A stretch of DNA of 64,000 nt from Hormiphora californensis. Its lineage: Eukaryota > Animalia > Ctenophora. The translations under genes were made by a program, and so were the position numbers. Numbering within the stretch: the first letter of the stretch is position 1; the number at the start of each line of letters is the position of its first letter. This document shows positions 1 through 55,729 of this stretch, piece after piece. Below the pieces are notes generated by a model. That model was not told the DNA's origin. It did no database searches and was given only the letters and a program-made list of their open reading frames with translations. The stretch covers positions 7,440,001-7,504,000 of the forward strand of contig CM035351.1 of NCBI GenBank assembly GCA_020137815.1, given 5' to 3'.

Positions 1-527
1 ACCACCGGAGAGACTGCAGCACAGTTTTGAGCAAGAACAGTAGAGTAAGCTTTCACCTTCTGCACTGAGTTTGTCATTGAACTTAGTTGCTCCTGTTGAT
101 TGTTGATGACGGTCTGCTGCAGCTCGATCACCGTAACACGGTGGCGGTCAAGTTCTTCTTTGCACTTACGAAACTCCTCCTCTAGTTTCCTCGTACTGCT
201 AGCCTCATCAAGGCTATACATTGCACATTTCAGAAGTTTCACACCGGACAAAAAGGTTTTACATGTAGTGTCTATGATTTCCTCTTTAGATAAGGTCTTG
301 AGAATATGTCTAAAGTGAGAGCATATATCGTCACTAGGTGAACCAAGTTTTGACTCAGGGAATTGTTTGATAAAGTTGTAGTTATTCGTTACTTGCTGCG
401 GTTCAAAAGTTATCTCTTCCGAGGTATCCTCGTAGTCCATTCTCAAAATTTCCATAACATGGTCGTTCACTGCTTTTATCAATCGTTCATTCGTAGGGTT
501 ATCGCCCTCGTTATCTTTCGTTCCCAT
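1..527 (-). CDS. LINE ORF1-like coiled-coil protein, N-terminal part (runs off the window start); homologous to the ORF at 53792-54901
   Basis: Hand translation from ATG at 527: MGTKDNEGDNPTNERLIKAVNDHVMEILRMDYEDTSEEITFEPQQVT...SVQKVKAYSTVLAQNCAAVSPV, open to base 1. Aligns by eye with SEFDPNKLT and AVQTVVKEEIQSYSTVLE of the 53792-54901 ORF. Absent from the ORF track because it has no stop in the window. Confidence 0.75.
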   Translation of the reverse strand, partial: MGTKDNEGDNPTNERLIKAVNDHVMEILRMDYEDTSEEITFEPQQVTNNYNFIKQFPESKLGSPSDDICSHFRHILKTLSKEEIIDTTCKTFLSGVKLLKCAMYSLDEASSTRKLEEEFRKCKEELDRHRVTVIELQQTVINNQQEQLSSMTNSVQKVKAYSTVLAQNCAAVSPV

Positions 528-547
528 CACTACCTAGAGGCTCACGC

Positions 548-584
548 CTCAAATTAATTTGTTTAAAGTAGTGTTGAAAAGTTT
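548..584 (-). other. Spliced-leader (SL) relic at the 5' end of a retroelement
   Basis: Minus strand reads AAACTTTTCAACACTACTTTAAACAAATTAATTTGAG, ending 20 nt before the ORF1 ATG. The last 26 nt are identical to 18909-18934. Matches my recollection of the ctenophore SL. Confidence 0.85.
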
Positions 585-13308: not shown

Positions 13309-16300
13309 TCAGGAGAGATATGTGCCGATGAATTGGGCCACCCCTAAAGCAGACATTTCCATTGCAAGACCATTGTAACGTGAATCTTCGTATGGATCAG
13401 CAAACCGGAACACAGCTTTTAGAGAGAGACAGGGTGTTCCTGAGAGGGAACAAGTTCGATACAACTCCACTGTCTCCGTGTCACTTCCCAACACCCTCTG
13501 AAACAATATATTACTGGAATTAGTGACTACATTACGAAATTTAGGATTAGGGTTTAAAAGTTAATATAAGTGAAGGGGTTTCAGAATTACAATTACCTCT
13601 GGACAAAGTGCGGATCGATGGAAGGCTGTACCAGTCTCATAAGGTAGGTCTACAGGAGACACTACACCCCGTTTTAGTGTTGGAGTTAAACGGCGCTTTC
13701 TCAGCGAGACTCCATCAGTAGATAGTACTGCAGCCTGGGGAGATATTTCAAACTTTCATCAACTCCAACGTAAAACTATTTATTGAGGATGACAGTGAAC
13801 TGTATGAGTCGAGTGCTGTAAATACACATAATTTGGGTGACAAGTCCCATGTTCACAGTAAACAGTTGTAGTACATGTTAATATGGTTACATACTGGGTC
13901 CTGGGACACGCTGAGATGTTAGTAGTCATAACTTAGATAACCACTTAGATAACCAACTTAACTGACAAACCCATCTAAAGAAGTGTCTTTACCTCTAGAT
14001 TCGGATCAACTGAGACGGTATTTCTAGATTCATTATACACAAGGGCCATATTGATGTTGTGAAGACAGGGATACTGAGAATGGTAGATGGCCATATTGTG
14101 GAGAAATCCCTGGGTATCATACCCCGCACTGTGATCGTAGTCAATAGAGTTGAGGAAATCAGATTTTAGCGGCTCAACCTAGGGGGGGGGGAGTTCAATA
14201 TCAGGAACTTAGAACTGGGGGTTGAATCACTTATAATATCGCCATCCATACACCCAGTTCAACGAATAGTGCTACTACAACTAACCGACTTTATCTCCAG
14301 TATAAGTTTGGTGATCCACAACAGGACCTGTGATGCTGGGATATCCATGGGTCGGGGAAGAAGGCCAGGTAACCTCCACAATTGGGTACCCCCACTACCC
14401 TCTACCCGGGCCAGGAGATCCCGCACAGAGTCAGCCAGGGTGTAGGTTATACTACTAAAGGGTACCTCATCACACACAACCAAGTCACACAGGGACACCT
14501 GGGGGGGGGGAAGGTGGTAAAGAACAGGGAGAGTGGTTCATTGGTTAATGGAACATTTTAAGTGCACGGTGAATTTGTAACTTACCCTGCCCCTAACACC
14601 ATCACACAGTCCCGTCAGTAGAATAAGGTGGGGATTAAACCGGTTTATAGAATCCTGGAGACATTTCCCAAACTCCCTCACCGGGCTACACACAATCACA
14701 ATGGCATCGAACAGTGTCACAAAGTAAAACTGTGAATCAGGAAGTTTCCGCATGGAGCTAGTTGTCTCCCCGCCCAGAATCTTCGTTAGCCGTGCCTGGA
14801 TCAGCTCACTTTGCAGAGTGTTACCCGTTAGGACCAGGATAGTGCGGCGGTTTGTGCAGGGTTTCCGTAGGTTTGGTGGTGCTACAGCTGCTCTGGCAGA
14901 GGGACGCACCCAGTTCCCGTCCTCTTTACTCTCCTCTCTGAGCTTGGTTATCTGGTCAAGGAGGGTGGAGGACGTAGGTCGGGTATCATGGTCTAGGGAG
15001 CAGGTTATGGCAATTTCTAGGAACCGTGATGCCACCTCAACTGGCCATGGGGCTCCTTTTCTAGACACTACATCGTGGGGTTTATTAGACTTCATGTCAA
15101 TCAAACCAACTAGGGACTGGGCTTCAACTGGGACCCGTTTGGAATCAAATGCACACAGGTTGGTTAGAAGCTCCAACAGTAGCACACCATAACTGTAACA
15201 ATCAGTCTTGGTTGAAATCTGACCTCGTGCTGCCTCGGGACTTATGTAACCCATTGTGCCCTGTAACCGGTTAGTCATGACAGTTGAGTTATCACTGCCA
15301 AGGCGAGCTAACCCAAAATCTCCGATCTTCGCTTGACACTCGTTAGTAAGGAGCACATTAGCCGATTTGAGATCTCTGTGTATCAGGGGTTTGTCCGTGG
15401 CCGTGTGAAGGTAAACCAGACCCTTGGCTATATCCTCTGCAATGTGAAGTCTTGTCCCCCATGCCATGGATTGGGAGTCTGGACCTGCCAGAGCACTCGC
15501 CAGCGAGCCCTTTTCCATATAGTAGTAGACCAAACAGGGTGCCTTAGGGTCCAGGGAGTAACCGACCAATTCCAGCAGATTTGGATGCCGGTATTTAGAT
15601 AGAGCCGCAACTTCCACTGCAAATTGTTTTAAACCGACCGATCTCGCATGCATGTCGTTTTGGATGTTCAGTTTTTTAATCGCGAATGTTGTGTTTTTCA
15701 AGTTCCCCTTGTACACAGTTCCAAATGATCCCATCCCAAGTTTACAGCTGGATGTGGATTCTCTAAAGTCATTAGTCGCGTGACACACCTCTTCGTAACT
15801 AAACTCAACTAGTCCCTTGTTCCTCAACGCCAATAGTATGTCATCCGTCATCGACTCCTTGGCTGCAGTGGCAACATACGACAAGCTAATATCGTGAGAC
15901 GTTGACGGGAAATCTGGTAACTCTGGTCGACCCTGCATTATGGATCGTGTCAGACCGCTCGGTTTAGGCTGGGGAGCACGGTTTGGTGCATCCGATAGTT
16001 TTAGACTTGCCGCCAACGATTTAGACACTTGACCAGATTTCTTGAGAAAATCGAAAGCTTTCTTGTTTCTCAGTTTAAACAAAATGGTAAATAGCTCATC
16101 AACATTTGTCCCAGTCATTGAGAGGTCACTGAGGAGGGCCCTTGAGGGGCTGCCGTCCATCTGTTTTTCACACAGCCCAAACGAACATATTTGGGTGTTG
16201 GAGTAGATGCCGAGCTTTGCAGCAAGGGCTCTCCAGTTCTGATCCCCATGAGACGTGTCAAGAATTTCGCTCAGCCCGTGGACGCAGGAGTAAGGGACAT

Positions 16301-16322
16301 CACTGAGACGTTTTGGTGCCAT
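13309..16322 (-). CDS. IRAK/Pelle-like kinase: Death domain + Ser/Thr kinase + C-terminal nucleoside phosphorylase (PNP_UDP_1)-like domain; at least 5 exons
   Basis: Exon 1 16322-14586: Death domain (NWRALAAKLG...SPSRALLSDL), kinase GMGSFGTVYKG, FAIKKL, Tyr-gatekeeper CLVYYYM, HRDLKSAN, DFG, GTMGYISPE, then PHLILLTGLCDGVRGR. In-frame phase-0 exons 14498-14286 (VSLCDLVV), 14178-13993, 13734-13597, 13497-13309 (RVLGSDTET...PCLSLKAVFRFAD...SALGVAQFI). Small extra exons in 13992-13735 cannot be excluded. Confidence 0.85.
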
Positions 16323-16759
16323 CACACAGTGAACATAGCTTCTTTTATCATTTTTTCTACGGATCAAAATATAAATTAGCTCAAAGTTACAAGTTTGTTA
16401 AGAAGTTCTATTACATCAATGGCGACAGGGGTCAGGGCCAGGGAATTTCTCGCCTTCTCAAATCCCAGACTTCTTAATTCTTCAACTTGAAACAGAAAAC
16501 TTGAAAATTAATAATATTCAAACAGAACCTTTTTTCTAGAAACAACAAATTAACACCGACTACCGGGGGCTCAGGCTTCAGAATCCAGAACTCAGATTTC
16601 AGAAATGGGAACTGAAAGTTAAAACGGACAACGGTGCAGAAAGTTGGCTTTTCAATGCAGAAAGATAAGAAAGAAATTGGCAAACGTTGCTGCCCCCCGC
16701 GGGATAAGGCAGCTGCAGCACTTTTCAACGCTTTTCAAAGAGATGTAGGTCGTAGGACT

Positions 16760-18192
16760 GAAGCATTCAAGTTCGCCGACGACGGATCTGTGTTGGTTTT
16801 TGGAGACCAGACTCAATGCGAGAGAACTATGGCAATAGTTTTGGACTACATTCACAACTGGTGTCGGAAGTGGAGACTAGCGGTGAACTGTGATAGAAAT
16901 AAAACAGAGATTGTCATCATCAGACCAAGGGGTTCATCAGATGATAGTGCATCACCTCAGCAACTGAAGATTGGAAATAAAGTTGTCTCTTTTGCCAAGA
17001 ATAGTAAAGTCCTTGGGGTTTACATTGATAGTAACCTAAATTTCATGACTCATGCTGCTGATGTACTGAAAAGATGCTGGTTTAACTGGAACACATTAAC
17101 CTCAATGACTGGTCGACTGACAGGGATTAACAGTTCGGGGCTTTCGCTACTATTCAGAACAGTAATCTTGACAAAGATCCTTTATGCAGCACCAGTTTGG
17201 TTAAGACAGCGAACGGACTTCTTCGGAGATCTTCTTTCCCGAGCACGGCTGAAGATAACAGGGGGACAAGTTCACATAGCCAAACCTCTGTCAGAACTCC
17301 TAGCATGCGTGCCTCCTATTGACGTTCTTGTGGAAACAGTGGTAACCAAATTTGTCCTAAAAGGCCTTGCAGCTAAAGATAATATATCAGCTAAACTACT
17401 ACAAATTGAAGCGGAACAAAATCATGTGTTCTTCTGGCAGATTGCTGCTACCAAAAGATATTTGGTTTGGAAGTCGACTCAACTAGACGGTGTCCAGATC
17501 CAGGATTCTAACAGAGATTCAATCAGAACTATTAACTTGGGAAGTTTAGAGCCGGACACTTTCCTGTACTCAAAAGAGGAAATGAGACAGTGCACATGTA
17601 GTTTATGGGACCGGTCACTCAAATCATCGATTAACCATTTGACTCGAGATGACCCTTTCAGCATACTTCCTATTCACTCTCAAGAAGAACTCGCCAACCT
17701 TATCAACTCAGAGGCCACTTTGGATTTCCCCATAATTCCAAGAAACATGTCCCGACAGAACTCATCTCAGGTCTTAGACTTTGTACATGGCAGATCCTTA
17801 CGTTTTCAAGACTTCAGCTTCAGTTACCTGAGATACGAGCGATCACTTACAGTTCCCAACTGTCTTGAATGTGGCCAACTCCCAGATTCAACATTCCACA
17901 AGTTGTTTGAATGTTCTGCGATAAAAGATGTGGAAGGGCCCCGTGAGGAACTAAGGGTGATATCTTCTTATGAAATGAACTTCCATCTTCCACTAATTTT
18001 CTCCAAAGACAAGCAGGTAAAATCGAACTTTAGAAAGCTAGTAAGAGCTGTAATAGAACAATCTTTATTTGGGGATCAACTGCTTGTGTAATGGGTTTAT
18101 ATTCTAATCAATTGTAAATGTATAACTGACCAGCCCGAGACGTACACACTGTGTACGAATCGCACTCCACGGAGTGAATTTTTAACTAACTT
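16760..18192 (+). mobile_element. 5'-truncated non-LTR retrotransposon (RT C-terminal half plus CCHC zinc knuckle)
   Basis: Begins at RT motif AFKFADDG; WCRKWRLAVNCDRNKTE, KVLGVYIDSNLNF, ILYAAPVW, CLECGQLPDSTFHKLFEC; stop at 18091; 3' hairpins CGTACACACTGTGTACG and CACTCCACGGAGTG; short TAAC tail. ORF-track residues before ~16760 are non-element sequence. Confidence 0.85.
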
Positions 18193-18199
18193 ATTTAAT

Positions 18200-18903
18200 C
18201 AATTTACAATATATTTTAATCATTATCTAATCAGTATTTTAATCGACATTTTTTATATTTTTTTGTATGATCTGACAGCTGAGAAAGTGTGAAAGAGACC
18301 TAGAGAGTTCCATTTTCCTCGCAAATAGGAGGGCAATATTGACAGTGTCAATTTATTGTAAACAGATTTAATAATAATAATCAAAGAAAGAAAAAGAAGA
18401 AGTTCAAAATTAAAAAAAAGGGGGGGGGGCGGCCAATATCGGCCTTAAAATAAAATATATAATAAATTACACAGTAGAAATCAATGGAATCAATAAATTA
18501 TTGTGGAATTAGTCCATACGATATAAATATTCATCAGCGTCACTTGCAGCCGTCTTGCCCCTGCCCCGATATCCCCTAATCGATACAGTTATTGAGCGAA
18601 CCATCGCAAATGATAAGCGCAGTCTAAGATACCGAATACAGTCCTGGCGCTCATATCCAGTTTTGGAAGATTTTCGGTGGGCTAACTGTTTCAGTGTGTT
18701 CTGAAATTCTCTACCAAGTCCGCCTGATGTTGACATGACAAGCGGAGTGAACACCGCCTTCTCAACCTGGAGAACTCGTTGCAGATAAGCTTTCTTCTTC
18801 TCAGTTTCATGCTTCTCATAGATCTTCTGTATACTCTGGTTGGCATTAGACTTTACCCTTGGATTAAAAATCCTTACGTCAAAATAGGTACAGTTTCAAG
18901 CTT
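18200..18903 (-). mobile_element. CRE-like (restriction-like endonuclease) non-LTR element, 3' part
   Basis: YFDVRIFNPR...HETEKKKAY...FTPLVMSTSGGLG...LSFAMVRS (RLE domain); stop at 18509; A/T-rich 3' UTR whose end is approximate. Continues the 24503-25266 piece. Confidence 0.85.
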
Positions 18904-18934
18904 TTCGGCACTACTTTAAACAAATTAATTTGAG
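18892..18934 (+). other. Spliced-leader (SL) relic at the 5' end of the full-length LINE
   Basis: AGTTTCAAGCTTTTCGGCACTACTTTAAACAAATTAATTTGAG. Last 26 nt identical to 548-573(-); located exactly at the insertion junction, 57 nt before the ORF1 ATG. Confidence 0.85.
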
Positions 18935-18991
18935 GTCTATGACCTCGAATTAGCCAATGTGTTTTAGTATGGCATACTAAGAGCACGGAAC

Positions 18992-20554
18992 ATGGCCACA
19001 CTACCCCCACCCAGTCCGAAGTCCCCCATCCCATTCTCCAATATCGCAAGTGAGGGGGTACTGATAAACAATAACGACATCGACCTTAAGCTCATCCAAG
19101 GATTGTCGGAACTGTCCCTAGCCCAGCTAGACAGACTGGTTGAACACCTCAACGTCGAATTATCCAGAAGAGTACCAGACTGCACCACAGCTGAGGATCC
19201 TAACCGGTATGTGGAGGTAGTCGAGGATTATGTGGGCGAAGATGACCTCAACTTGCTACATGGTGAGGTCATGGATTTAACAGAGAAAAACACTTGGGTA
19301 ACGTCCACAGGAATGCCCTATAGTTGGTTCAGTAAACGGGGACAACAGCTCGCTGAACATAAGTTGACCCCAGTCGCCCTTGAGGAATTCCCCGTTGTAG
19401 AGCGGATCATGAACACTATGAACACTATGCAAGGATGGAGACTAAATTCGTGTCTGGTCACAAGATACGACACGGGTGTCGGTGTGGGTTATCACAACGA
19501 TTTTGAGGTGACGATGGATAAGTCCTCCCCGATTGTTGTGTTAACTGTCGGAGCGCCGGGTAAAGTGGATTTCTTACCCTACAAAGCAGATGGAAGGACC
19601 ACGCCAGCTCTCACCCTGGAACTGATTGCTGGTTCCGCCTACGTCATGCACCCAGGATGTCAGGAGGTCCTGAAGCACCGGGCGGTCAAGAACGAGTCTA
19701 CTGAGAAGCGGTATGCTCTGTCCTTCAGAAGAGCAACCCCACAGCTCCCCTCAACAGATCTGGTACCACCACCACCACCACCTAGCCCACGGAGACTGCC
19801 CTCCCCACCATCGAGGGCAACAATAGGAGTCCAGCATTCCCCTCCTCCTCCTAATGGGGATGGTTACCAACCGGATCCTCCTCCTCCTCCCCCAGTGGCG
19901 AACGTGCCGGTACCCTCCGTTAGACCACCCCTACTTCCTACCCCTTCTGGAGTGGTCCCTTCTTTGAGACATGCCGTCAACCCTAGGAGCCCCACTACTC
20001 TGCTCTTGGGCACGAGCCTGTCCAAATGGGTACCTGAGATCCGGGGGCTTGAGAATATCTCTGTGTCGGGTGCAAGGATTGTGAAGCCCCATTCGAAATG
20101 GAAGGGTACTACAGCGTTTGAAGAGCTGTCCAGGTACCACCAGAGCCACCCTGAGGCACACTTTGAGAAGGTTGTTATCTGCTATGGTACGAACGATATT
20201 AGGTTTGATAAGAACTTCTGTGAGAACAGCGCAACGAAGAACCGACTCCAAGGGGCACTATGCCACCTAGTGAGGCAGATTAGACGGTTGTATGGGGACC
20301 CGGAGATAGTGATTACACATGTCCTTCCCCTGAGAGGAGACTTCTCATATACGGTCTCTAATGTTACCATGTACAACAAAATTGTAAATTGTGTGTCCCA
20401 ACTCATGAATTGCAGTTTTGTGAGTTGGATGGCTGATTTCCTAACGCGTGATTTGTTTTTCAACTCATCACTTTATTGTAGGGATGGTGTGCATTTGAAT
20501 AAATATGGTTACTCGGTCTTAACTGACCTGATTTATAACGAAGTTTTACGCTGA
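18992..20554 (+). CDS. LINE ORF1: AlkB-like 2OG-Fe(II) dioxygenase + Pro-rich linker + SGNH/GDSL esterase
   Basis: LNSCLVTRY...GYHND (HxD)...GSAYVM...LKHRA (H)...RYALSFR (RxxxxxR). SGNH blocks: LLLGTSL, SVSGA, CYGTND, DGVHLN. Confidence 0.88.
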   Translation: MATLPPPSPKSPIPFSNIASEGVLINNNDIDLKLIQGLSELSLAQLDRLVEHLNVELSRRVPDCTTAEDPNRYVEVVEDYVGEDDLNLLHGEVMDLTEKNTWVTSTGMPYSWFSKRGQQLAEHKLTPVALEEFPVVERIMNTMNTMQGWRLNSCLVTRYDTGVGVGYHNDFEVTMDKSSPIVVLTVGAPGKVDFLPYKADGRTTPALTLELIAGSAYVMHPGCQEVLKHRAVKNESTEKRYALSFRRATPQLPSTDLVPPPPPPSPRRLPSPPSRATIGVQHSPPPPNGDGYQPDPPPPPPVANVPVPSVRPPLLPTPSGVVPSLRHAVNPRSPTTLLLGTSLSKWVPEIRGLENISVSGARIVKPHSKWKGTTAFEELSRYHQSHPEAHFEKVVICYGTNDIRFDKNFCENSATKNRLQGALCHLVRQIRRLYGDPEIVITHVLPLRGDFSYTVSNVTMYNKIVNCVSQLMNCSFVSWMADFLTRDLFFNSSLYCRDGVHLNKYGYSVLTDLIYNEVLR

Positions 20555-20672: not shown

Positions 20673-23600
20673 ATGATAAGTGCTGAACAGTACAGACAAA
20701 CTATTGGGAGGTTTGCAGGGGGGAGGGGTGGAAAAAGAAAAATGTTTACTAACAAAACCCTTGACCGACAGTACAGACAAACATCATCAATATCACCATT
20801 TCATTTGATTCTCTACCTAAGTTACAGTATACTAATACTTATTCTTTTAGGCTCTATGTCCAGATGTACTTCCTCTCTGTCCTGTAGAGAACTATGTATG
20901 GAAACAGGCCGAGAAGAAGTCGGTAAGAGTATCAACCAGCATTACATTTGGTATGCTAATTGTGTGTTAACCCTGGTGATATTCAAAAGTATGGGGAAAA
21001 TAGGGAACACCTGTTCCAAAATCATAGTTAGGTGTCGACTAGTCGTACTATTAATCTTTCTTTCGAGTCTAGCAAAAGCACTTATTGTTATCCACCAGCC
21101 CAGTATTGTAAATCCTGGGCCTACTGAACCAAAAACAAAAATTAGTGTGGTGTACTGCAACGTTAATGGTCTCATAAATATGCAATCAATTAGTGGTGAT
21201 CAGCCCCAGTTTCAAGTATCTAAACTCTCTGATCTCCGAGCATACTTGTTTACTTATGAGCCAGAAATTGTAGTATTAAATGAAACGTGGTTGAACAAGC
21301 ATGTCAATGATGGGGAATTAGTGTCCGATCAGTTCTATACAATATACAGAAAAGATAGAACTAAAAGGGACATGGAAATGTATGATAAAAAGGGTGGGGG
21401 AGGAGTTATGATTCTATGTAAGAATAACATGGGTATTGAAGTTGATCAGGTAAAGGACAAGGTAAATCTGCCTATTGTCACCATACTGCTCAAGTCAAAA
21501 AACCTGACCCCGATATGTATCTCAACATTCTACAGGTATGACTACTCGGGGTCAGATTGTCTTGAAGAAACTGAGCGGTACTACACACGCCTATCTAGAA
21601 AATATAAAAACCTAGCAATCATCGGGGATCTCAATCTAAGTTCGGTTAAAGATTGGGATGACCCAGTATCGAGCAATAGTATACACGAAGGCTTTGCTCA
21701 CCTTTTTACATCTCTGGGTATGAGTTCGTTAATAAACGCACCTACACACAGGGATGGAAATATATTAGATCTAATTCTCACAAATAATAGTTCGTGTTTT
21801 TCCAATGTATCGGTAGAAGAAAATTGTTTAGTCAAATCTGACCACTTCACTATTAAATGTGAGGTGCAAATCAAAAAGATAAGACCCAAGTTTAAGACGG
21901 CTAAAAAGTTTTCTTACAAGAAAGCTGATTGGGATGCGATTAATGAGGGACTGATTCGGTATGACTGGACTAAGGAATTCAAACACCTCAGGGCCGAGCA
22001 ATCTCTTCAGAAATTTAAATCAAAATTAGATATTACCCTAAGACACCATGTACCATTAGTTAATGTAAAAATAGGATCTCAACCACCCTGGTACGATGAT
22101 GAGTTGAGACAGTTAAAAAGGTCAATGGATAATTCTAGAAAAGCTTCTCTGAAGTTTCCAAATGATGTTTCCCTAAAAAATGTATTTACTTGTATGGAGG
22201 CAGAGTACAGAAAAGCGTCAAGGGAGAAAGAAACACACTTTCTAGAACTCTCCTCCATTGATGAGTCTGCCTCTACAGCTGCAATTTCCAAAAAGTTTTT
22301 TAAACATGTGAAATCAAAAACTAGCAGCACTAGAGTCCCTGATATAGTTCATTACGAGGATAACTCTGAAAAAAGTAGTCAACAAAAATGCAAAATGTTT
22401 AATGATTTTTTTTGTAAACAGTTCACACAAGCCAGTACGTATAGCACACCAATTGATTTTGATAGAAACCACGATAATGATTTTAACAACGAAACTTTTC
22501 ACTTTGATGAAGTTGTAGATATATTAAGAAAATTAGATGCATCCAAGGCCACTGGCCCAGATAATATAGACGGTATAGTTTTGAAAAAATGTCACAAATC
22601 ATTGGCATATCCACTAGTATTAATTTTTAACAAAGTTTTTGATGAAGGGTCTATTCCAACTGAGTGGAAAAATGCAAATGTTGTGCCAGTCCACAAAAAA
22701 GGAGATAAGTCTAATGTAGAGAATTATAGACCGATTTCTCTTACGTGTCTAATTATGAAGGTCTTCGAAAAGTTGGTTAGAGAGCGCCTGTATAGGGCTT
22801 GTCTGGAGAAAGTTACACCTCATCAGCATGGGTTCGTACCACTGAAGTCATGTACGACCCAACTGATCGAGTTTAACTGTGAGCTAGCAATAAATTTAAA
22901 CCAACACTTGCAAACAGATATTATATATTTTGATTTTCAAAAGGCTTTTGACAGCGTATCACACGATGTCATACTTGAAAAACTTAAAGTCCAGTATAAC
23001 ATAAACGGTAAAATGTTGCAATTTCTTAAAGCGTACTTATCTGGACGTCGACAGAGAGTAGCATTAGATGGTGAATTCTCGGAATGGTCTAATGTTAAGA
23101 GTGGAGTCCCTCAAGGATCCATCCTCGGTCCATTCCTTTTTGTTCTATTTATAAATGATATAGTTGAGGCCATTGGGGATGAAGGAGAAACCAATATAAA
23201 GCTATATGCAGATGATCTAAAAATCTGGAGGACGATTAAGAATGAAAATGATAGTCTCCAGCCTGATATTGATAGATTGATTGAGTGGAGTGTGAAAAAT
23301 AAAATGAAGTTCCACCCTAATAAATGTAAACTTCTTAGATGTACCTTGAAGCATAAGCCTGTTAACCTAAAATATTACTTAGGAAGTAGTGAGATTCAAC
23401 AATGTACAAATGAAACTGACCTGGGGGTGATCACCAATAGAAAATTATCGCCTCTAGAACACCAAAACATGATAATTTCTAAAACGTCTCAGAGGTTAGG
23501 CCTAGTCAAGAGAACTAGTGCTCTGGTTGATTCCCCTCTAAAGAGGAGAACACTTTATGTCAGTCTTGTTAGTTCGTTGTTTGAACACTGCAGCCAGATA

Positions 23601-24065
23601 TGGCGACCAGTTTCAGCCTCTAGTATTGAAAAGTTCGAAAAGCTCCAAAAACGTGCATTAAAATGGATAAATAATGAAATGGAGCTCAGCTATGATTGGA
23701 AAACGTATGTCAGTAAACTTAAACAAAGAAAGATTCTTCCTATTACCGAAAGGTTCCTTTATAATGACTTAAAACTGTTTCATAAGATATTCTACGGATC
23801 TTCATCCCTAAAACTTCCAATGTTCCTTCACAAATACATCCCTGACAGACACGACAGGCGTACAACTAGACAACAGACAAACCGGGACCAAACAGACATC
23901 ATTTGCACACATAACCCTAATATTGACGCTTTTAAACATAGTTATTTTTACCGTATCCATGTGGAATGGAATAACCTTCCGCATGACCTACGATGCCTAG
24001 ATTCTCATGATGCCTTTGTGGCCAAGCTCAAAGATTATCTCTGGAATAACATTCCAAATTCGTAA
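20673..24065 (+). CDS. LINE ORF2: hydrophobic leader ending in NPGP + APE endonuclease + reverse transcriptase
   Basis: First ATG at 20673 (MISAEQYRQTIGRF); YCNVNGL, LNETWL, IIGDLN, LDLILT, SDHF (APE); NYRPISLT, QHGF, DFQKAFDSV, GVPQGSILGP, LYADD (RT). Confidence 0.95.
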   Translation: MISAEQYRQTIGRFAGGRGGKRKMFTNKTLDRQYRQTSSISPFHLILYLSYSILILILLGSMSRCTSSLSCRELCMETGREEVGKSINQHYIWYANCVLTLVIFKSMGKIGNTCSKIIVRCRLVVLLIFLSSLAKALIVIHQPSIVNPGPTEPKTKISVVYCNVNGLINMQSISGDQPQFQVSKLSDLRAYLFTYEPEIVVLNETWLNKHVNDGELVSDQFYTIYRKDRTKRDMEMYDKKGGGGVMILCKNNMGIEVDQVKDKVNLPIVTILLKSKNLTPICISTFYRYDYSGSDCLEETERYYTRLSRKYKNLAIIGDLNLSSVKDWDDPVSSNSIHEGFAHLFTSLGMSSLINAPTHRDGNILDLILTNNSSCFSNVSVEENCLVKSDHFTIKCEVQIKKIRPKFKTAKKFSYKKADWDAINEGLIRYDWTKEFKHLRAEQSLQKFKSKLDITLRHHVPLVNVKIGSQPPWYDDELRQLKRSMDNSRKASLKFPNDVSLKNVFTCMEAEYRKASREKETHFLELSSIDESASTAAISKKFFKHVKSKTSSTRVPDIVHYEDNSEKSSQQKCKMFNDFFCKQFTQASTYSTPIDFDRNHDNDFNNETFHFDEVVDILRKLDASKATGPDNIDGIVLKKCHKSLAYPLVLIFNKVFDEGSIPTEWKNANVVPVHKKGDKSNVENYRPISLTCLIMKVFEKLVRERLYRACLEKVTPHQHGFVPLKSCTTQLIEFNCELAINLNQHLQTDIIYFDFQKAFDSVSHDVILEKLKVQYNINGKMLQFLKAYLSGRRQRVALDGEFSEWSNVKSGVPQGSILGPFLFVLFINDIVEAIGDEGETNIKLYADDLKIWRTIKNENDSLQPDIDRLIEWSVKNKMKFHPNKCKLLRCTLKHKPVNLKYYLGSSEIQQCTNETDLGVITNRKLSPLEHQNMIISKTSQRLGLVKRTSALVDSPLKRRTLYVSLVSSLFEHCSQIWRPVSASSIEKFEKLQKRALKWINNEMELSYDWKTYVSKLKQRKILPITERFLYNDLKLFHKIFYGSSSLKLPMFLHKYIPDRHDRRTTRQQTNRDQTDIICTHNPNIDAFKHSYFYRIHVEWNNLPHDLRCLDSHDAFVAKLKDYLWNNIPNS

Positions 24066-24502
24066 ATTCGCGGCTGTGCTATTGACTTCACCTACTTTCT
24101 AAACTTTAGATCAATCTCTCCTATCTCATGGACTTCAAATTATTTATTTCTTTGGTGTGGTGTTGAAGAGTTGAAACTATACAACAAGCAATCGCACAGT
24201 CGCGAATCTAATCACATAATTGATTACAAGACATTTACAAACAAGAATTTTGGGGGGTTGGCTAGGGAGGGGGAAATAATCAATATATTATCTATTATAG
24301 TAGCCATATTAGATTTTGTTTATTCTATTAAAAATATACTGTATTAGTCTGTTTGTCCGTAGTGTGTGAGAACTGTCTGTGTGTGAATTTTTAGAGTATT
24401 TTGAGGTGTAAGCGCTCCGTCGATATTGACACTCCGTCAATAGGAGCCAACCGGGATATTGTCTTTATAAATATATCGATTTTTATCCTTTTCCAAATCA
24501 AA

Positions 24503-25266
24503 TCAAGCTTGACCAGAGTCCACGGGTTCTGATGTCAAGGCGAGCCCCGTCTGCTGTGATGGTCCCAGCTGGAAGGGACGTCCCCCGAACGTTGAGAAGG
24601 TGAGGTTCGACCTTGGTATCGAGGCCGACAGTGCTAAGCTCTTTCGCAATAAAGTCTCTCACGTTGTCGTGCCTGTAGTTAACAAATCCTCCAAGCTTGC
24701 AGGAGATAGCATGATCGATACTGTTAGCTTCTCCGCATGTACACTGATCTGGTAGAGGTTCGCCAACAAGGGGGAGATTGTACCTAGCCGAGATAGCGTC
24801 GAACCATTCCTGTCGGTTTAGAGTGAAGTTAAGAGATTCAAGTGGGAGACAAGTTAGCCAGGAGGATGCACCCTTTTCGGCCAGGAGATCGAGGGTCCTC
24901 TTCTCTTCTGGTGTCGATTTTGATTTTATTTGATCGATTGCCGTCTGATGTTGATCGTTTTTCGTACGACGCACAATGAGTTTGTTCTCTGAGTTTTTGA
25001 CATCATCTGCAGTAAACGTATCTTCCTGGTTCAGCACAGCTGCAGACAGATTTTCAGTCATGAGTTTGGAGAAGTAGTACTCGCTATCCGATGTAGCGAC
25101 GGGGTTTTGAATCCCGAGTCCTCCAAATCTCGCTGGAAGAGAGAAAACTGATCGAAGTCTCTCGTTGATAACAGGTTGTCCAGTCATAGAAGTGATGAGT
25201 TGCTGCAGAATTGAATCCTCAATCGGGCCCAACTGATCAGAAATGCCTGGAGTCGTTCTCATAAAT
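24503..25266 (-). mobile_element. CRE-like non-LTR element, 5'-truncated upstream part (post-RT region, zinc knuckle, start of RLE)
   Basis: LPARFGGLGI, KGASSWLTCLP, CTCG...DHAISCKLGG, RHDNVRD, EPHL, GARLDIRTRGLW. Confidence 0.88.
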
Positions 25267-25322: not shown

Positions 25323-25466
25323 TAGTGGAAGCTCTTACGGTATTCCCACGGCCGTGGGAAAAGTGAGATAGTTAGAAATACTAAGAGAGAGAAATTTCTC
25401 TCTCTTAGTATTTCTATCTATCTCTCTTTTCCCACGGCCGTGGGAATACCGTAAGAGCTTCCACTA
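25323..25466. mobile_element. 144-bp near-perfect palindromic MITE bounded by TA
   Basis: TAGTGGAAGCTCTTACGGTATTCCCACGGCCGTGGG...CCCACGGCCGTGGGAATACCGTAAGAGCTTCCACTA. Confidence 0.85.
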
Positions 25467-30600: not shown

Positions 30601-33600
30601 CCTGTATCTAATGAATTAGTATGTTCTTGGAAGTAGTAAATTCAATTCCCAGAATCCCGGCTATTACCTACATCATAATTCTAGCCACGTGTTGTGTACA
30701 GTTCCACACTTACACACACAGCATTATCCCTTCCACCTTCATACCAGACCACCCTGATCATCCCCTCTCGCCCACTCCCTGACCCCTTCCTAAATCCCTT
30801 CCTTATCCCCCCCCCCCCTAAACCCCCTGGTTCACTCCATAACCCCCTGATTCACTACATAACCCCCATTATCCCCCCCTCTAAACCCCCTGATCTCCAC
30901 CAGGTATTCCCATTATCCCCCTCCCCTAAACCCCCTGATATCTCCACCCCTCCCCTAAACCCCCTGATATCTCCACCAGGTATTCCCATGACGAGGGAAT
31001 GACATGGCTCAACAAGACGATCAGCACAGAGAAGATCACTGTCCAGGGTCTTATAACAGAACCAGGGGAGACTACTACTATATTCAATGTGTATGCTACA
31101 GAGCCCGCAGGTGGCAATATGGGATGGATCATCTATACAATCGACTTTAAACCTGCCCTAGGTAATTTTATAATTGATCATTACATGTTCCTTGATTGCC
31201 ATTTGTTTCATTTGTTTTGGAGCAAAATACTCTTTCGGACTAGTTTTTTATTTCATATTTTGGCATATATAATACCTCGACCAAAACGCGGAGTTTTTAC
31301 GTCAGCCGACCCGAAACCGGATTAAATTTGGCCACCCGTCAAAATATGTCTGAATTGTCATTTGGGGTCATTTAGACCTTTTAATTACATGTAATTACCC
31401 TTTAATTACATGTAATTACATTTTAATTACATGTAATTACTTCCAATTACATTCCAATTACTTCAGCACCTCGAGAGCTTTCGAACGCACCCTAGAACAC
31501 TTTTCTACTCCTTCTAATTGCCGAGTTCTGTATACCCCTTATTTTGACTGTTTTTCGCGTCCTACCCCTTATAGGTTTGGGTATGGCCATCGCCACACCC
31601 CCTATACGTCGCGGGACCTCGAGACCTTTCCAACGAGCCATAGAACACCTCTCTACTACTTCAGGGGGCTTCAAAACTTTCACTCTAAAAATATCTATGG
31701 TTATGGTTATGGTTATGGTTTTATGGTTTTATGGTTTTTTTTCATCTGGTATTAAGGGCCTGTCGGCTCGGCCCCGTTGTTTTAGTTTTAGGGGGGATGT
31801 TTTAGGGGGGATGGGTTGAGTTTGGGTTATATTCGGGTCGGGGGGCCTTACCAGGCCCCGAATGTTTTGGCTCACACAACAGCTTGGTTATTAGTTTAAA
31901 TATTGTTACACCCCGCCACAGCTTTTCCTCCTCTCTCAGGGGAATACAAATTTGTGATAAGCGGGAAAGCGAAAGGGGTGGGGGTAGCTGGGAGACAGGG
32001 ACAGATTGATAAACACTCCTTCTTCTCTCAGGTCCTGCCTGCACGGGTGACGACTTCACATCATGGAGCATTAGAGATGAGCTGAAGAGCACAGAGTGTG
32101 TCCTGGGTATCGATACTCAATTTGAACGGAAGAAGGGTACCGCCCATTGTTACATTGGCTCTGATTACAAGCGGACTGTGTCGGAGTTATCGTGTCCATG
32201 TCAGGCATCCGATTTCGAATGGTGAGTGTTAGAACAGTTGTTATGTTCTAACCCTCCTTTACATTTGTAAAAGAGGGTCTCTCGCCGTCGTGGGGCACGG
32301 AGAGAAAGGGTCGAACAAGGCAGGTTAATTGTAGTGTATGAAATGTGTTTAACAACTTTTATTGATGTCCTGTCTCTCTCTCTCAGTGATTTCTTGTATG
32401 AGAGAGAATTCCCGGGTGACCCCTGTCTGCCCCTCCCCAACATTGACACCAAGTGGTTCATACCGTCCGACTGTAAGCCTGGAAACCGGTATAACGCCAC
32501 CTCTGGATACATAAAGATCGAGGGAGATAAGTGTGTAGGTGGAGAGGAGAATATCTTTGCAGCAAAGGAGGTCCCCTGCCCAGATGAAGGTATGTACTGG
32601 CAAGAGTCAGGTTGCGAGCTATCATTATAACATAGCGGGTCTTGATATATACGCTGTGTGAGAGGAAGGAAGGCGCGGTGACTCGCCTACTGGGCTTCTG
32701 GCGCGATCGTGTACTTGTGCGCGCAACTTTACACTGCTCTCTCTCTCTCTTGTTCAGTACACAAGTGTAATCTCGATCTTCAACACCTTCACACACATCA
32801 TTCGTAGTCAGGGCATATGATGCCAAAATAAATTAAAAAAGGGCATAATTGTTATCAAGCTAATTTCACTTCTAGTAGGCTCTATTAGGTCCCTAGAAAC
32901 ACCAAAAAAATTGGCCGCGGTTTTATCAATGAAGAAGTTGGGTTTTTGGGCCACGCCCTTTTACCTATGTTTTTAGCCTTCTGGCGAAACCAAAACGGGG
33001 CTTAGGAAAGGAGTAGAGACAAATCTAAGGACACTAAAATGTGTAGCGTCCTCGCATTAGTGGGGGTAGGTGCGGAAATTAAGTCTCTATCTCATCTGGT
33101 TAATTATGTAATTGGATAATTAGATATGCGCATAACCGTATTTTGGCTAAATGGCTATAGCCACTTAGGAATGGTTTAGAGACTTTTCACTGGTGCCATT
33201 TTGTAGGCAATAGCCAAGTTATGGGGGGTCGACGTCGAAATTTTAAGCTCTATCTCCAACCGTTTGACCGCTATTTGGCATTAAAGATGCTCAAAATGAG
33301 CAAAAAACGGTAAAAAGCCCGATTTTGAGCATCTTTAAAGCCAAATAGCGGCCAAACGGTTGGAGATAGAGCTTAAAAGTTCGACGTCGAACCCCCATAA
33401 CTTGGCTATTGCCTACAAAATGGCACCAGTGAAAAGTCTCTAAACCATTCCTAAGTGGCTATAGCCATTTAGCCAAAATACGGTTATGCGCATATCTAAT
33501 TATCCAATTACATAATTAACCAGATGAGATAGAGACTTAATTTCCGCACCTACCCCCACTAATGCGAGGACGCTACACATTTTAGTGTCCTTAGATTTGT

Positions 33601-36600
33601 CTCTACTCCTTTCCTAAGCCCCGTTTTGGTTTCGCCAGAAGGCTAAAAACATAGGTAAAAGGGCGTGGCCCAAAAACCCAACTTCTTCATTGATAAAACC
33701 GCGGCCAATTTTTTTGGTGTTTCTTGGGACCTATTAGAGCCTACTAGAAGTGAAATTAGCTTGATAACAATTATGCCCTCATTTTGTCACCGTATGCCCT
33801 GACTATCGCCACAATTCAGCTGTTCATTCTCAAAACTACAGCCCCATTTTCACCCTCTCTTGTTCAACCCTCTCTCTTGTTCGACCCTCTCTCTTGTTCC
33901 ACCCTCTCTCCCCTAAACATCTCTCTCAGTTCTTGGTAACTTGACGGTGGTAGTTGCGAGTAACACGGTCGCGGTGGGAGCTACTGTCTCTGTTCACGCT
34001 CAGAGCGATGGATATATGGGTGATGTGTACTTTATGTGGTATACAAGTGACAACCAGACTAGTAGAGGGCAGGGAATCAGTGGGCAGTATACTCAGTTCA
34101 CATTCAATGAGTAAGTGCCATTTGTCAGATCATGAAACATAAACTTGTTATTTTTATCCAACCAACATCTCCTTAACTAACCCTCTCCTCTCTGCAGAGA
34201 GGGAACATTCACAGTAACAGTTAGTGCCAGTAACGGTATGAAAAACCCGGTCGTTGCCATGGCTATTATTGATGTAGACAAAAAGATAACAGGACTAGAA
34301 CTGACCATATCTCCTGATGATCCTGCAGTCGGAGAGACTGTGTTTGCTATCGTCTCCCCTGGTGACCTTTCCCAGAAGTTTGATGTAAGTTTATAGAATG
34401 GTTCAGTAACTGTTTCATACGTCATGTCTGTCCCGTGATTCATGGATGACAACATAGTTTAGTTGTTTAGTTGTTATTATATTATATATCTTGAGTTACA
34501 TCAGTTACAAAGTGCGTATATCCCTGTTCGGCTATGACATCACCATCTTACCACCCCTCCCAAGTCCCATGATACCTCGTTGAGTAACAAATGATACCAT
34601 CACCTATACCACTCTTTCCTCCCTATAACCCTCCCCCCCAGTTTGGCCGGATGATGTTCGCCTGGACGCCTGGCCCAACCTCTCACCTACCTCTCCTCCT
34701 TCACACCGGGTTCGACAAGGCTGGGGAGCAGACCATTCGGGTTGTCGTATCCAACTCTGTCAGCAAACTGGAGCTAGAGAAAACGTTTACTGTCGCAGGT
34801 ATAATCAGCCAAGATATACAAATCAAGCCCTAAATATACGCCCCCTTCCTTGGCCCTATATGGCCCTATGACTATAACCGACTACCTATGACTGGTTAGC
34901 AGGGGGAAGAATGAACTAATTAGTAACCCACCTCCAACTGATTCAGATTTGTCCGTGTCTTCAATCCACGCGATACCAATTGATAATACCCACATTCAAG
35001 TTATCTGGCAGCCCCCTACATACAGGACCGGTATTGTCTCTTACTACAACGTCCAATACCAGAGGTAGAAGGAGTAGAGAGTTTAGGAATAAACTTCTTT
35101 CCTTCTTTCATAGGAGACATTACAATTTACATGTACCAATATCTCCCTCAATTTCAGTACTGGTAGTGATACATGGACGAGTGTGAAATGTAACAGTACC
35201 TTTTACCGTCTTGGTCCACTCTCCGCCTCCACAACCTACCAGATTAAAGTGCAGACTGGCAGTAGCACTGGTAAAGTCACTGACTCCACCAATGTGATCA
35301 AAGCCACCACTCTCCCGAACAGTAAGTTGTTTAATTAAACTAATTTATAACTTGACCAGCAACTATATTGTGGTTCAATACTATAATCAATAATACTGAC
35401 CGGTTGATTGTCTATGAGCCACAGTGAAGAATTTAGTTCTTCATGTTCTAACAGTTACAATTCCCTCCTGTTTTGTTAAGTAACAACAACTCTCACACCA
35501 GACGACAGAGACCCTGCAACGAACCTAAAGGTCTCATTTGATAACAAGAAACTAACCCTCTCCTGGGTTGAAGGGACGGGAGCCCAGTCCTATACCGTGG
35601 ACTATTGGACCCCGGAGAGATACCAGGAACCCCTGTCCATAACTGTATCTGGACCTAGTGCTACCATTGAAGGCTTGAGACCTTCTTCAAAGTACTCTCT
35701 TAGGGTAAGTACACTATTATTTATACTATTTAGTGTGATAAATTCTCTTATCTCGGATACCAATATAAATATACCTACATCGCTTGGTATTATTGGGATC
35801 ATATTCGTGTCTGCTTAGGCCTGTTTTTGCTAGCTCCTAAAATTGTTTGAGTCACTTCTCATCGACTCAATGTGACATCGACCAACTCTCTTTCCCGATA
35901 AAGAGAAAAGGGTAGCCTTGTTTACGGTTTATTCGATTGGAAAATACCCTAGAAAGAAACTTGTGGACCCTAGATCTCGTACCCCAAACCTGTTTATTTA
36001 AACCAGTTGTTGCATTATCTGGATGTAACGTGGACCCCAGCTGTATATACGTCCCACAACGAGTTCTCGAGAACGTTTTGAGTTTCAATCCCCAGTTCAG
36101 CTATCTCTGGGCTATCTCTCTTTCTCCTTCACTCTCTCACTATCTCTATCTCTCCTGTTGCGCATTTCAAACAACTCGAAAGTAGAACCGGTTTTGGTAG
36201 ACATAGTGGCATCTGCAATCCCCTCCGCCCACTGTATATGTGTTATCAGGGTACTCCACAAGCTGCACAGAGATACATGCAGAGATAACAATGACGTATT
36301 TAATGGGGCTCCAGGGAAGTGCTCTTAGTTTTTGTTTAGTATGCAGATTGCAGGGTATCTGTCAGGTCAATGTTCAGACCGCTATTCTCTCTAATTGAAA
36401 AGAAAGGAAACTAGGGCCAGGCTAATGCTCTGACAACATGCAGAATATGGTGGATTCAGATTCTCCATATAATACAACACAGGCCCCCGCCGCACCAACA
36501 TAATATGTTACGAAGCAAGCAGGGAGGTTGCAATCGGTATTGTACGAGTCAGTAATGTGATTACCACAACTGTAAAAGTTTGACTCACATTTCTTCAGAA

Positions 36601-53490: not shown

Positions 53491-54915
53491 TCAATCAATC
53501 AATCAATCAATCAATCAAAGCTACCACGGTGGGTAGTGGCACTGAGCCGCAATAAAATATATAATATTAACGAAAACTGAACCACACGGACCAAACTAAG
53601 TGGGGATTCGGGACGGTGTAACATAGCCAGATGCTCGAAGACAAGGAGTCTTATGTGTGCATATAACCATGGTACACCATCCCGTTACCCACCATGTCCT
53701 TACAAACAAATGCAGCGGAAAGAAAATAGGCAATATATATAGAAAAATAGATTTCTCCCTTTCTTGCACTCACTCTGACTCTATCTCACTCTCACTCTGA
53801 TCTGGATCTCACTCTGACTCTATCTCTCTCTGACTCTGAATCTCTCTCTGACTCTCCCTCTCTCTCTGACTCTCCCTCGCTCTCCGACTCTCTCTCGCTC
53901 TCCCTCTCACACTCAATCTCAACAATTGAATCTCTTCTAATTCGCCAAGCTTTCTCAGGTTCATATTCTCTCCTTTCTCGTAGTCTCGCTACTAAAGCTC
54001 GCCGTTCAGTTCTCTCCTCAACAGTCCTGTCAGGGGCAATGTACACTGTCTGATACAAATCAGAGTCTTTCAGCTGAGCTGATTTACGAAGAACTGTCCT
54101 GGCTGCCTCTCTGGTCCTCAGCACCACTCGAACAGGTCGCGCTTTCACACTACTCCTCCCAAGTCTTTCAACTTTCGATAGAACTGGAGCCTCACCAAGC
54201 TCCTGGAATACTCCCTTTACCTTGTCATGATCGGTGCTATCGGTCGTTTCAGGTAGTCCGTAAACTATCAGGTTGGTGGTGCGATCCTCTGAAGCATTGG
54301 CAATGGCTGTCCGGATCTTGCTGGGGGCAAGAGCAGATACACAGGTCTCTTTAACAGCGGTGGCAGCAGTCTCCAAAACAGTTGAGTAGCTCTGGATCTC
54401 CTCCTTCACTACTGTCTGCACAGCATTGACACTCGTCTCCAGTAGGGAATCCTTCATGGAGATGATGGAGTCTTTTAGGGCACTCACCTCATCCTGTAGA
54501 GCGATAATTTTCCGGTCCCGCTCCAACAGTTCATCCTTGGTGGCGTGAAGACGATCCCTGGTGATCTTCAGATCATCTAGAACTTGGTTGTCAACAACCT
54601 CATTCCTCTCTCTCTTCTTTTCTAAATGTTTCATTGACAGTCTTGCTAGGGGCAGAGATCGGTACCAAAGAAGACCAGCCATGTCCCCGATTATCTTTAT
54701 CTTCTTGTTGGTGTCTAGCTTGTTCAGGCAGGCGCTCGTCAACTTGTTCGGATCAAACTCACTTCCCTCATTGTGGGGTTCATGGTACCCCGTGGCACGA
54801 CGTAGGGTAGCAACAATAGAGGTTTCTAGTCTCTTCAGGTCAACTGTGGTAGCATTTTCAACTGGGCATCCGGGTCGCCAACTGGAGAAGGTGCGATCCA
54901 TCTCCGTGTGGAGAG
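53491..54915 (-). mobile_element. ORF1-only (RT-less) non-autonomous non-LTR element with (TTGA)n tail
   Basis: TCTCA at 53489-53493 and 54916-54920; host repeat continuous across the insertion; tail at 53491-53518; 3' stem-loop CTACCACGGTGGGTAG; no ORF2. Confidence 0.85.
53792..54901 (-). CDS. CR1/L2-type ORF1 protein (coiled coil + RRM-like domain + ERES-rich tail)
   Basis: True start probably ATG 54901 (MDRTF); coiled coil; RTTNLIVYGLPE, VERLGR...RPVRV, VYIAPDRTVEER motifs typical of LINE ORF1. Confidence 0.82.
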   Translation of the reverse strand: MDRTFSSWRPGCPVENATTVDLKRLETSIVATLRRATGYHEPHNEGSEFDPNKLTSACLNKLDTNKKIKIIGDMAGLLWYRSLPLARLSMKHLEKKRERNEVVDNQVLDDLKITRDRLHATKDELLERDRKIIALQDEVSALKDSIISMKDSLLETSVNAVQTVVKEEIQSYSTVLETAATAVKETCVSALAPSKIRTAIANASEDRTTNLIVYGLPETTDSTDHDKVKGVFQELGEAPVLSKVERLGRSSVKARPVRVVLRTREAARTVLRKSAQLKDSDLYQTVYIAPDRTVEERTERRALVARLRERREYEPEKAWRIRRDSIVEIECERESERESESEGESEREGESERDSESERDRVRVRSRSE

Positions 54916-55729
54916 TCTCATTTAGATTTGTTCCAAATCTAAAGGAAGCTGACCCCGTTTTGACCTGTCTGGCGGTGCCCACCCCGTTTTGACCTGACTG
55001 GCGGTGCCCACTGCCCAGTGCCCACCCCGTTTTGACCTCTCTGGAACTGCCTACCCCGTTTTGACCTGTCTGGCGGTGCCCACCCTGTTTTGACTCTCAA
55101 AACGCGTGGTAGGGCGCTCAGATAGGGTCGGCGAGGCCAGATAGCAACGGTTAATGATTACGGAAGCTATCCAACGTCCATTATGGACTCCATGTCTGGC
55201 GGCGCTGGCCCAATCTGAGCCCACTGTCATGACGGAAACAGAAAAGAGGTGACAGCGAGGCCACACAGTGACGGTCTGACACTGTCGGGATGACCATTTT
55301 TCACTTGGACCCCGAGTCGGAGCGAGGTCAGGCATTTCGCTGGGTGCTGGCAGGTCAGGCATGGGATGTTCCTTTTTCCTTCACCATGAACAACTGATTT
55401 CCACCGTGACATAAATTAAAAGACGTCAACCAAAGGGCAAGAGAACAAGATCGGTGGATATTTGGTTGACGTCTTTTCTCAATTTAGAACACGGTTAATT
55501 TATTTGTGCCCTTTTTGTATTAATAACTGGGCAACTGAAATAAGTAAACAAAAGAAATAATTAATACCAGTTGAAAATAAAAACACGGTTCCGGGGTTAT
55601 ATAGTGTGGCAAATCAATTTGTACTTGCTCTACGAGTAATGTTCGGTGGGAATGGGTTCATAATAATAAGTTGTCCAATCATTGTCTCGCTAATTACTAA
55701 TTAGTAGTTTTATTATTGCACTGCATAGT

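Follow-up and report, generated by a model that had tools for sequence, protein, structure and literature searches.

LINE retrotransposons that carry a host spliced leader (SL) as their 5' end are real and general within this ctenophore group, and they represent SL-relic retroposition in which the cargo is an autonomous element. Two leader-headed elements lie in the window, by which we mean the whole 64,000-nt stretch of Hormiphora californensis DNA that was analyzed. The same 26 nt occur exactly at 18909-18934(+) and 573-548(-), with no third match in the window at up to five mismatches; the chance expectation is 1.2e-10 for this 26-mer and 1.3e-6 for any exact 26-nt pair within the window. 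As originally predicted, the motif precedes two ORF1s, and the two copies part right after TTTGAG(G).

Two leader-headed elements in the window

The original prediction had taken this motif for the ctenophore SL, an identification that now stands on a published leader and on host transcripts. The Hormiphora genome paper prints a 44-nt leader, present on 56% of Iso-Seq reads (PMC8527503), which agrees with the window at 40 of 44 positions (18891-18934) and at 39 of 44 positions (591-548(-)), with at least 18 mismatches anywhere else; the motif also heads 83 host-mRNA contigs, described below. The claim that the LINE starts with this leader is borne out and extended, as the relic comprises the whole 43-nt leader and not just 26 nt. 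The features of the two elements and of the ORF interrupted by the first are as follows.

18892..18934, +: SL relic, full 43 nt, forming the 5' end of the LINE (by comparison with the published leader and the SL-gene exon of metagenome locus L062)
18896..18903, +: left copy of an apparent 8-bp duplication, TCAAGCTT, inside the relic
18925..18953, +: predicted 13-bp RNA hairpin of the leader 3' end with the first UTR bases (prediction only)
18935..18991, +: 5' UTR, 57 nt, with short upstream ORFs
18962..18967, +: TTTTAG, an acceptor-like hexamer kept in the UTR
18992..20554, +: ORF1, 520 aa, 2OG-Fe(II)/AlkB-like oxygenase and GDSL/SGNH esterase (Pfam)
20673..24065, +: ORF2, 1130 aa, AP endonuclease (PF03372) and reverse transcriptase (Pfam)
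24066..24503, +: 3' UTR, with two CAAAT repeats at its end (24494-24503) that are continuous with the CAA of the target
24503..24510, +: target-side (right) copy of TCAAGCTT
24504..25262, -: interrupted ORF, upstream half
18533..18894, -: interrupted ORF, downstream half
548..584, -: second SL relic, retaining the final 37 of 43 nt, identical to the L062 exon
528..547, -: 5' UTR of the second element, 20 nt
3..527, -: ORF1 of the second element, truncated at the edge of the window before any ORF2

The first element is an intact LINE of the AP endonuclease (APE) type, probably autonomous, with ORF1 and ORF2 both open and with APE and reverse transcriptase (RT) domains; its ORFs and the TTTTAG hexamer agree in position and content with the earlier description. 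The oxygenase motifs HND, HRA and RYALSFR are present in ORF1, and its esterase matches PF13472 (E 4e-10). An Rfam search of the window gave no match. Compared with the 43-nt exon of L062, the relic at 18892 is full length and differs by three A>G changes (18900, 18907, and 18908); its GG form occurs in none of the 40 metagenome matches that include at least two upstream bases. These changes could represent a minor SL-gene variant, editing or, for 18900, sequence derived from the target.

The 5' boundary of the LINE had originally been defined by the 8-bp duplication and the split ORF. This definition does not hold, because the left copy of TCAAGCTT sits within the relic and is not independent evidence; the boundary is instead marked by the leader's own 5' end at 18892. 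Removing the 8-bp duplication does not bring the interrupted ORF back into frame (at most 128 codons are open), and removing one further base leaves 227 codons open. Other copies of the interrupted element depart from the window after 18894, where their next base is C. As read from the sequence of the occupied site, the left junction is likely a microhomology join of the leader's first bases to a look-alike target. That the LINE splits this ORF is upheld; the CRE label once attached to it is less secure, in that we presume a CRE-like restriction-like endonuclease region from motifs, and Pfam and Atlas gave no family for it.

The ORF1 of the second element belongs to a different family, whose 24 sequences yield a predicted coiled coil, RRM and C-terminal domain (mean pLDDT 71). 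Pfam and a sequence search of solved structures gave this family no name; a fold search alone provided one, the 11 best PDB matches all being human LINE-1 ORF1p (E 7e-6 to 1e-4). By this structural prediction, the family shares the fold of human LINE-1 ORF1p. The window contains a third ORF1 of this family (54901-53792), which lacks a recognizable leader upstream. It lies in an ORF1-only element at 53491-54930(-), which has no ORF2 and ends in a GA-rich microsatellite and a (TTGA)n tail; upstream of this element is a 10-bp palindrome ending in TGAG.

Loci headed by the leader in metagenome contigs

Further leader copies were collected by an exact search of metagenome contigs for the 26-mer, in which copies with a diverged relic or none cannot appear; the sample is therefore biased toward young, canonical relics, and LINEs without a relic are invisible in it. 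Classified by what lies downstream, a check that the original prediction had suggested, the 97 matches fall in 96 loci: 83 host mRNAs, a single locus of tandem 5S/SL genes and 12 LINE-type 5' ends, of which 10 are firm and 2 probable. The leader thus heads many unrelated mRNAs, at 83 of the 96 loci, whose contigs begin at the 26-mer or at most 24 nt from it; 67 of these match a non-TE Pfam family, and the other 16 match neither such a family nor a LINE ORF1. None of the 11 genomic-type leader copies heads a host mRNA. The leader pattern has no match in the viral contigs or the prokaryote genomes searched. Two assemblies contain no host-mRNA match, with 10 of their 11 loci LINE-type and the remaining one the SL gene array, a content from which we infer that they are DNA assemblies. 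The LINE-type loci, which represent several distant families, were assigned as follows.

L025, L028, L044: ORF1, APE and RT, with ORF1 and ORF2 open
L016, L057, L060: ORF1 plus the beginning of an APE ORF (E 0.0015, 7.5e-7, and 1.7e-6)
L088, L095: DNA identity to L028 (92% and 76%), within a view of 300 nt behind the leader
L007, L049: ORF1 of the LINE-1-fold family
L086, L091: probable, placed by a shared UTR motif alone within a view of 300 nt behind the leader

L086 and L091 are graded as probable because of this sole basis, and a profile of the LINE-1-fold ORF1 family has no match in either. L007, a locus with the leader at the contig start among mRNA-type contigs, encodes an ORF1 48% identical to that of the second window element. 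L057 has about 350 nt of flank upstream of its relic, in an assembly made up mostly of leader-first mRNA contigs; it could be an unspliced read-through precursor or DNA.

Several short motifs recur behind the leader. Five loci with differing ORF1 types (L007, L049, L057, L086, and L091) have in common a UTR motif and a short GC-rich hairpin in the first 70 nt after the leader, and three of the five have TTT(C/T)AG straight after it. In another five (L016, L025, L028, L088, and L095), a conserved GGTGTTTTAGG stands immediately 5' of the ORF1 ATG; the UTR of the window LINE also contains GTGTTTTAG.

In the gene locus, L062, the leader occurs twice at a spacing of 778 bp, both times with a GTAAGC donor and a 5S rRNA gene behind it, which identifies the locus as the SL RNA gene. 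Its SL part has no match in Rfam. At 693-820, within the 778-bp repeat that it shares with 5S rRNA, the SL RNA gene is of ctenophore type and folds into three stems (z -4.1).

Origin and possible renewal of the leader

In all 14 LINE-type copies (the 12 loci and the two window elements), the junction between leader and element lies exactly at the exon end. Eight of the 11 genomic-type copies match 40-43 of the 43 leader nt perfectly, 14-17 nt of which lie outside the search pattern, and the other three end at 38, 35, and 28 leader nt, each in its own flank. The copies have the hallmark of an SL-relic retrocopy, a leader whose exon end abuts reverse-transcribed RNA, and their 5' truncation within the leader is variable. 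The exon-end junctions, the absence of the SL intron and the variable 5' loss all fit reverse transcription of SL trans-spliced RNA, which is almost certainly the source of the leader at these LINE 5' ends.

The elements NeSL, CRE, SLACS, and CZAR insert site-specifically into SL genes by means of a restriction-like endonuclease, which raises the possibility that the leader is a target, or else a chimera formed when the RT jumps onto free SL RNA. SL-gene-targeting retrotransposons of this restriction-like endonuclease (RLE) class are documented (PMC4640811), they share with the window LINEs an SL sequence abutting a non-LTR element, and the base after the exon is a donor-like G in both window copies (GT at the full-length relic). 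We nevertheless regard this origin as highly improbable and largely refuted. A conserved donor and Sm site behind the motif had been named beforehand as the observation that would point to SL RNA genes; the non-exon sequence of L062 (intron and 5S spacer) has no counterpart in the window or in the 11 genomic-type loci, and an SL RNA gene at the window relics was rejected on the same grounds, with donor, intron and 5S repeat lacking there. The upstream flanks are all different (only 1-6 nt of flank being present in L028, L044, and L086), and the 3' flank of the window LINE is the second half of the interrupted ORF rather than the remainder of an SL gene. Wherever ORF2 is visible, the elements are AP-endonuclease LINEs (PF03372 in the window) and not bearers of a restriction-like endonuclease, and a template jump would not be expected to hit the exon end every time, as seen in 14 of 14 copies.

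How the leader is maintained after its first acquisition from trans-spliced RNA is a separate matter. LINEs must rebuild their 5' end in each cycle, and the known answers to this are internal promoters and self-cleaving ribozymes. We lean toward the view that re-splicing at the terminal AG of the relic itself renews the leader in later cycles. A new copy would be transcribed from upstream, by host read-through or from a weak signal in or behind the relic, which would then serve as its own outron; a fresh capped leader would take the place of the relic, and the product would keep a single leader and the whole UTR. The leader exon is 77% A+T and has AG only at positions 1 and 42, and 97 of 98 sequences (the 96 loci and two window stretches) contain no second relic, the exception being the gene array. 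Given AG at the exon ends only and no tandem relic, renewal, if there is any, must take place at the terminal AG, and the absence of second relics outside the gene array is the expectation for such in-place replacement.

Renewal is further favored by the canonical state of the leader in elements that have otherwise diverged: among seven related loci, the ORF1s are 32-59% identical where whole and the ORF2s share 24-27% with that of the window, while the first 100 UTR bases align at 0.50-0.92. An internal promoter would have little space in the UTRs of the window elements, which are 20 and 57 nt long. The principal alternative is that the leader was captured once per family by trans-splicing and is now inherited, an internal promoter starting at the relic, with unspliced RNA as the template and splicing at a downstream TTT(C/T)AG reserved for the translated mRNA. 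The motif common to five loci with differing ORF1 types could be such a promoter element, and the TTTT box of the dinoflagellate SL has been proposed to act as a promoter (PMC12014239). Inheritance would, however, have to preserve a canonical leader while the UTRs approach unrelated levels, and most copies lose 1-15 leader bases, so that an end that is not refreshed would erode; the second window element, with its 20-nt UTR, does not have the UTR motif. Overall, we consider once-only capture unlikely.

Points for inheritance, and against renewal, come from the window relic itself. Its three A>G changes include the GG form absent from the metagenome, and the element is otherwise nearly unchanged relative to family contigs. 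A sister contig (X1 record 3 and X3 record 21) differs from the window by two letters and one gap over 18894-18949; a leader of canonical sequence would differ from the window more, which gives a weak hint, from these alignments, that at least one relic change is inherited in the family. No leader differing from the genomic relic has been seen on LINE RNA, where the data consist of run X22, labeled as RNA and presumed to be so, with 5 of 30 bins covered and the LINE UTR outside them. The variant window relic offers a direct RNA test of renewal versus inheritance. The third LINE-1-fold ORF1 in the window, which has no recognizable leader, also speaks against renewal.

Acceptor-like hexamers within the UTRs bear on the same choice. 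TTT(C/T)AG, which we presume to be a ctenophore acceptor by analogy with nematodes, occurs in the UTR of 9 of 14 LINE-type copies and in 6 of 10 families (0.86 expected from shuffles), compared with 1 of 79 host UTRs; at +1, it is found in 3 of 10 families and 0 of 83 hosts (p 0.0009, noticed post hoc). The original prediction that re-splicing at TTTTAG (18962-18967) could regenerate the element fails, because it would remove 18935-18967, which the family's contigs keep. As the hexamers are retained, the template RNA is not spliced there, which fits either a cycle with two acceptors or an unspliced template with an inherited relic. In the two-acceptor cycle, the downstream TTT(C/T)AG would yield a shorter mRNA for translation that is not a template for new copies. 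GAG is generally a weak 3' splice site, and the retained hexamers should compete with it, a further point against renewal.

A predicted pairing of the leader with the UTR is stronger in both window elements (18925-18953(+) and 590-463(-)) than in any of the 83 host mRNAs, and the sister contig has the same first 12 UTR bases that close the hairpin at 18925-18953. As a general feature, this hairpin was rejected: the 14 LINE-type copies together are no different from the hosts (p 0.13), as are the families (5 of 10, versus 30 of 83 hosts; p 0.49).

SL-headed copies could also be processed daughters that rarely transpose again, if the active masters are longer and have a promoter and an outron of their own 5' of the acceptor. 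An SL-based scan is blind to such masters, and one contig of run X3 (record 23, at a low depth of 34) enters the UTR at 18955 after 100 bases of unlike sequence. In the same run, a 1467-nt contig at LINE depth (323) connects the body of the LINE with the leader at 18917 without a break or branch and with one other letter; since single-copy depth is uncalibrated and contigs drop rare variants, it speaks for most copies and not for all. ORF1 and ORF2 are open in the SL-headed window copy and in L025, L028, and L044, and each new master would itself have to derive from RNA. Longer masters therefore appear quite improbable.

In its broadest form, the renewal model would have several distant ctenophore LINE lineages outsource their 5' end to the host. 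The leader would act as a self-renewing outron and acceptor in one, read-through transcripts would be cut and capped to unit length, a second acceptor would serve the translated mRNA, and the elements could do without an internal promoter or a 5' ribozyme; the unexplained leader copies, which number in the hundreds in ctenophore genomes, would then amount to a census of full-length LINE insertions. We put this forward as a tentative proposal, for which the odds are slightly unfavorable. If true, trans-splicing would be a third way to rebuild a LINE 5' end, in an animal and across distant LINE families, and the leader would be a simple tag for full-length LINE insertions.

Relation to known systems

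Slamovits and Keeling reportedly described SL-relic retrogenes of dinoflagellates in 2008. As the original prediction noted, such relics are in print; they stand in tandem on host genes (PMC12014239). In both systems, a trans-spliced RNA is reverse transcribed and its leader left in the genome, and the dinoflagellate relics, too, can be re-spliced (PMC12014239). The cargo differs, however, being host mRNA in dinoflagellates and the LINE itself in ctenophores. So does the outcome, in that re-splicing at internal AGs gives dinoflagellates tandem arrays of relics, whereas the ctenophore leader has AG at its ends only and no tandem relic.

A survey of parasitic flatworms discarded 597 loci with partial leaders near LTR or LINE elements, within 500 bp of a repeat, and its authors suggest integration of trans-spliced retrotransposon RNA (PMC12582326). 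The core idea is thus already in print for animals, in the part of that source available to us as a passing remark on filtered loci, with no account there of element anatomy, junction, intact ORFs or a renewal cycle. In contrast to these partial leaders, the ctenophore leaders are nearly complete and form the exact 5' ends of intact LINEs. At the RNA level, about 30% of TE Iso-Seq reads in Hydra bear an SL (PMC12220107), and in Heterodera, SL-bearing transcripts overlap with a LINE/CR1 repeat (PMC6362198); TE RNAs there also receive the host leader, and the accessible text of these reports does not describe it as a genomic 5' end.

In ctenophores, 718 leader copies have been counted in the Hormiphora genome and 491 of a leader motif in Mnemiopsis (PMC8527503). 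These dispersed copies are of the same kind of leader and, in the main text available, are neither classified nor tied to retrotransposons, a word absent from that paper, supplements aside. Our sample suggests that, apart from those in the 5S/SL array, most of these copies are LINE 5' ends; if so, this likely accounts for many of the unclassified copies in both species and cautions against counting dispersed leader copies as SL genes. A literature search, with subscription papers and the Hormiphora supplements mostly outside its reach, found no SL-headed LINEs in ctenophores, and the accessible parts of PMC7986045, PMC4664967, PMC4558846, PMC12460157, and PMC2566580 hold nothing on them.

Unlike NeSL, CRE, SLACS, and CZAR, the window LINEs have an AP endonuclease, unrelated flanks and no SL intron. 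LINEs of the CR1/L2 group have two ORFs, APE and RT, typically a GDSL esterase in ORF1, and a 3' tail of short repeats. The first window element resembles them in its ORFs and their domains and apparently in its tail, a likeness by domains and not by a tree, and it departs from them in its additional 2OG-Fe(II) oxygenase domain and its leader-derived 5' end. Its ORF1 (18992-20554(+)) joins an AlkB-like oxygenase, with intact-looking HxD...H...R motifs, to the GDSL esterase. Eleven relatives of this ORF1 were found, seven of them with both Pfam domains, and none in the viral contigs. The sole match in a literature search for an AlkB domain in retroelements was the AlkB demethylase described in orchid Gypsy elements (PMC9289625).

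Other features of the window include a 3' fragment of another LINE ORF2 at 16655-18091(+), weakly matching L028 and L044, and a long single-exon ORF for an IRAK/Pelle-like death-domain kinase at 14538-16322(-). Near-perfect long palindromes, possibly foldback elements, lie at 25323-25466 (144 bp) and 32805-33805 (about 1 kb), and an ORF at 56706-61256(-) encodes a 1516-aa coiled-coil protein with 84-bp tandem repeats containing CxxC.
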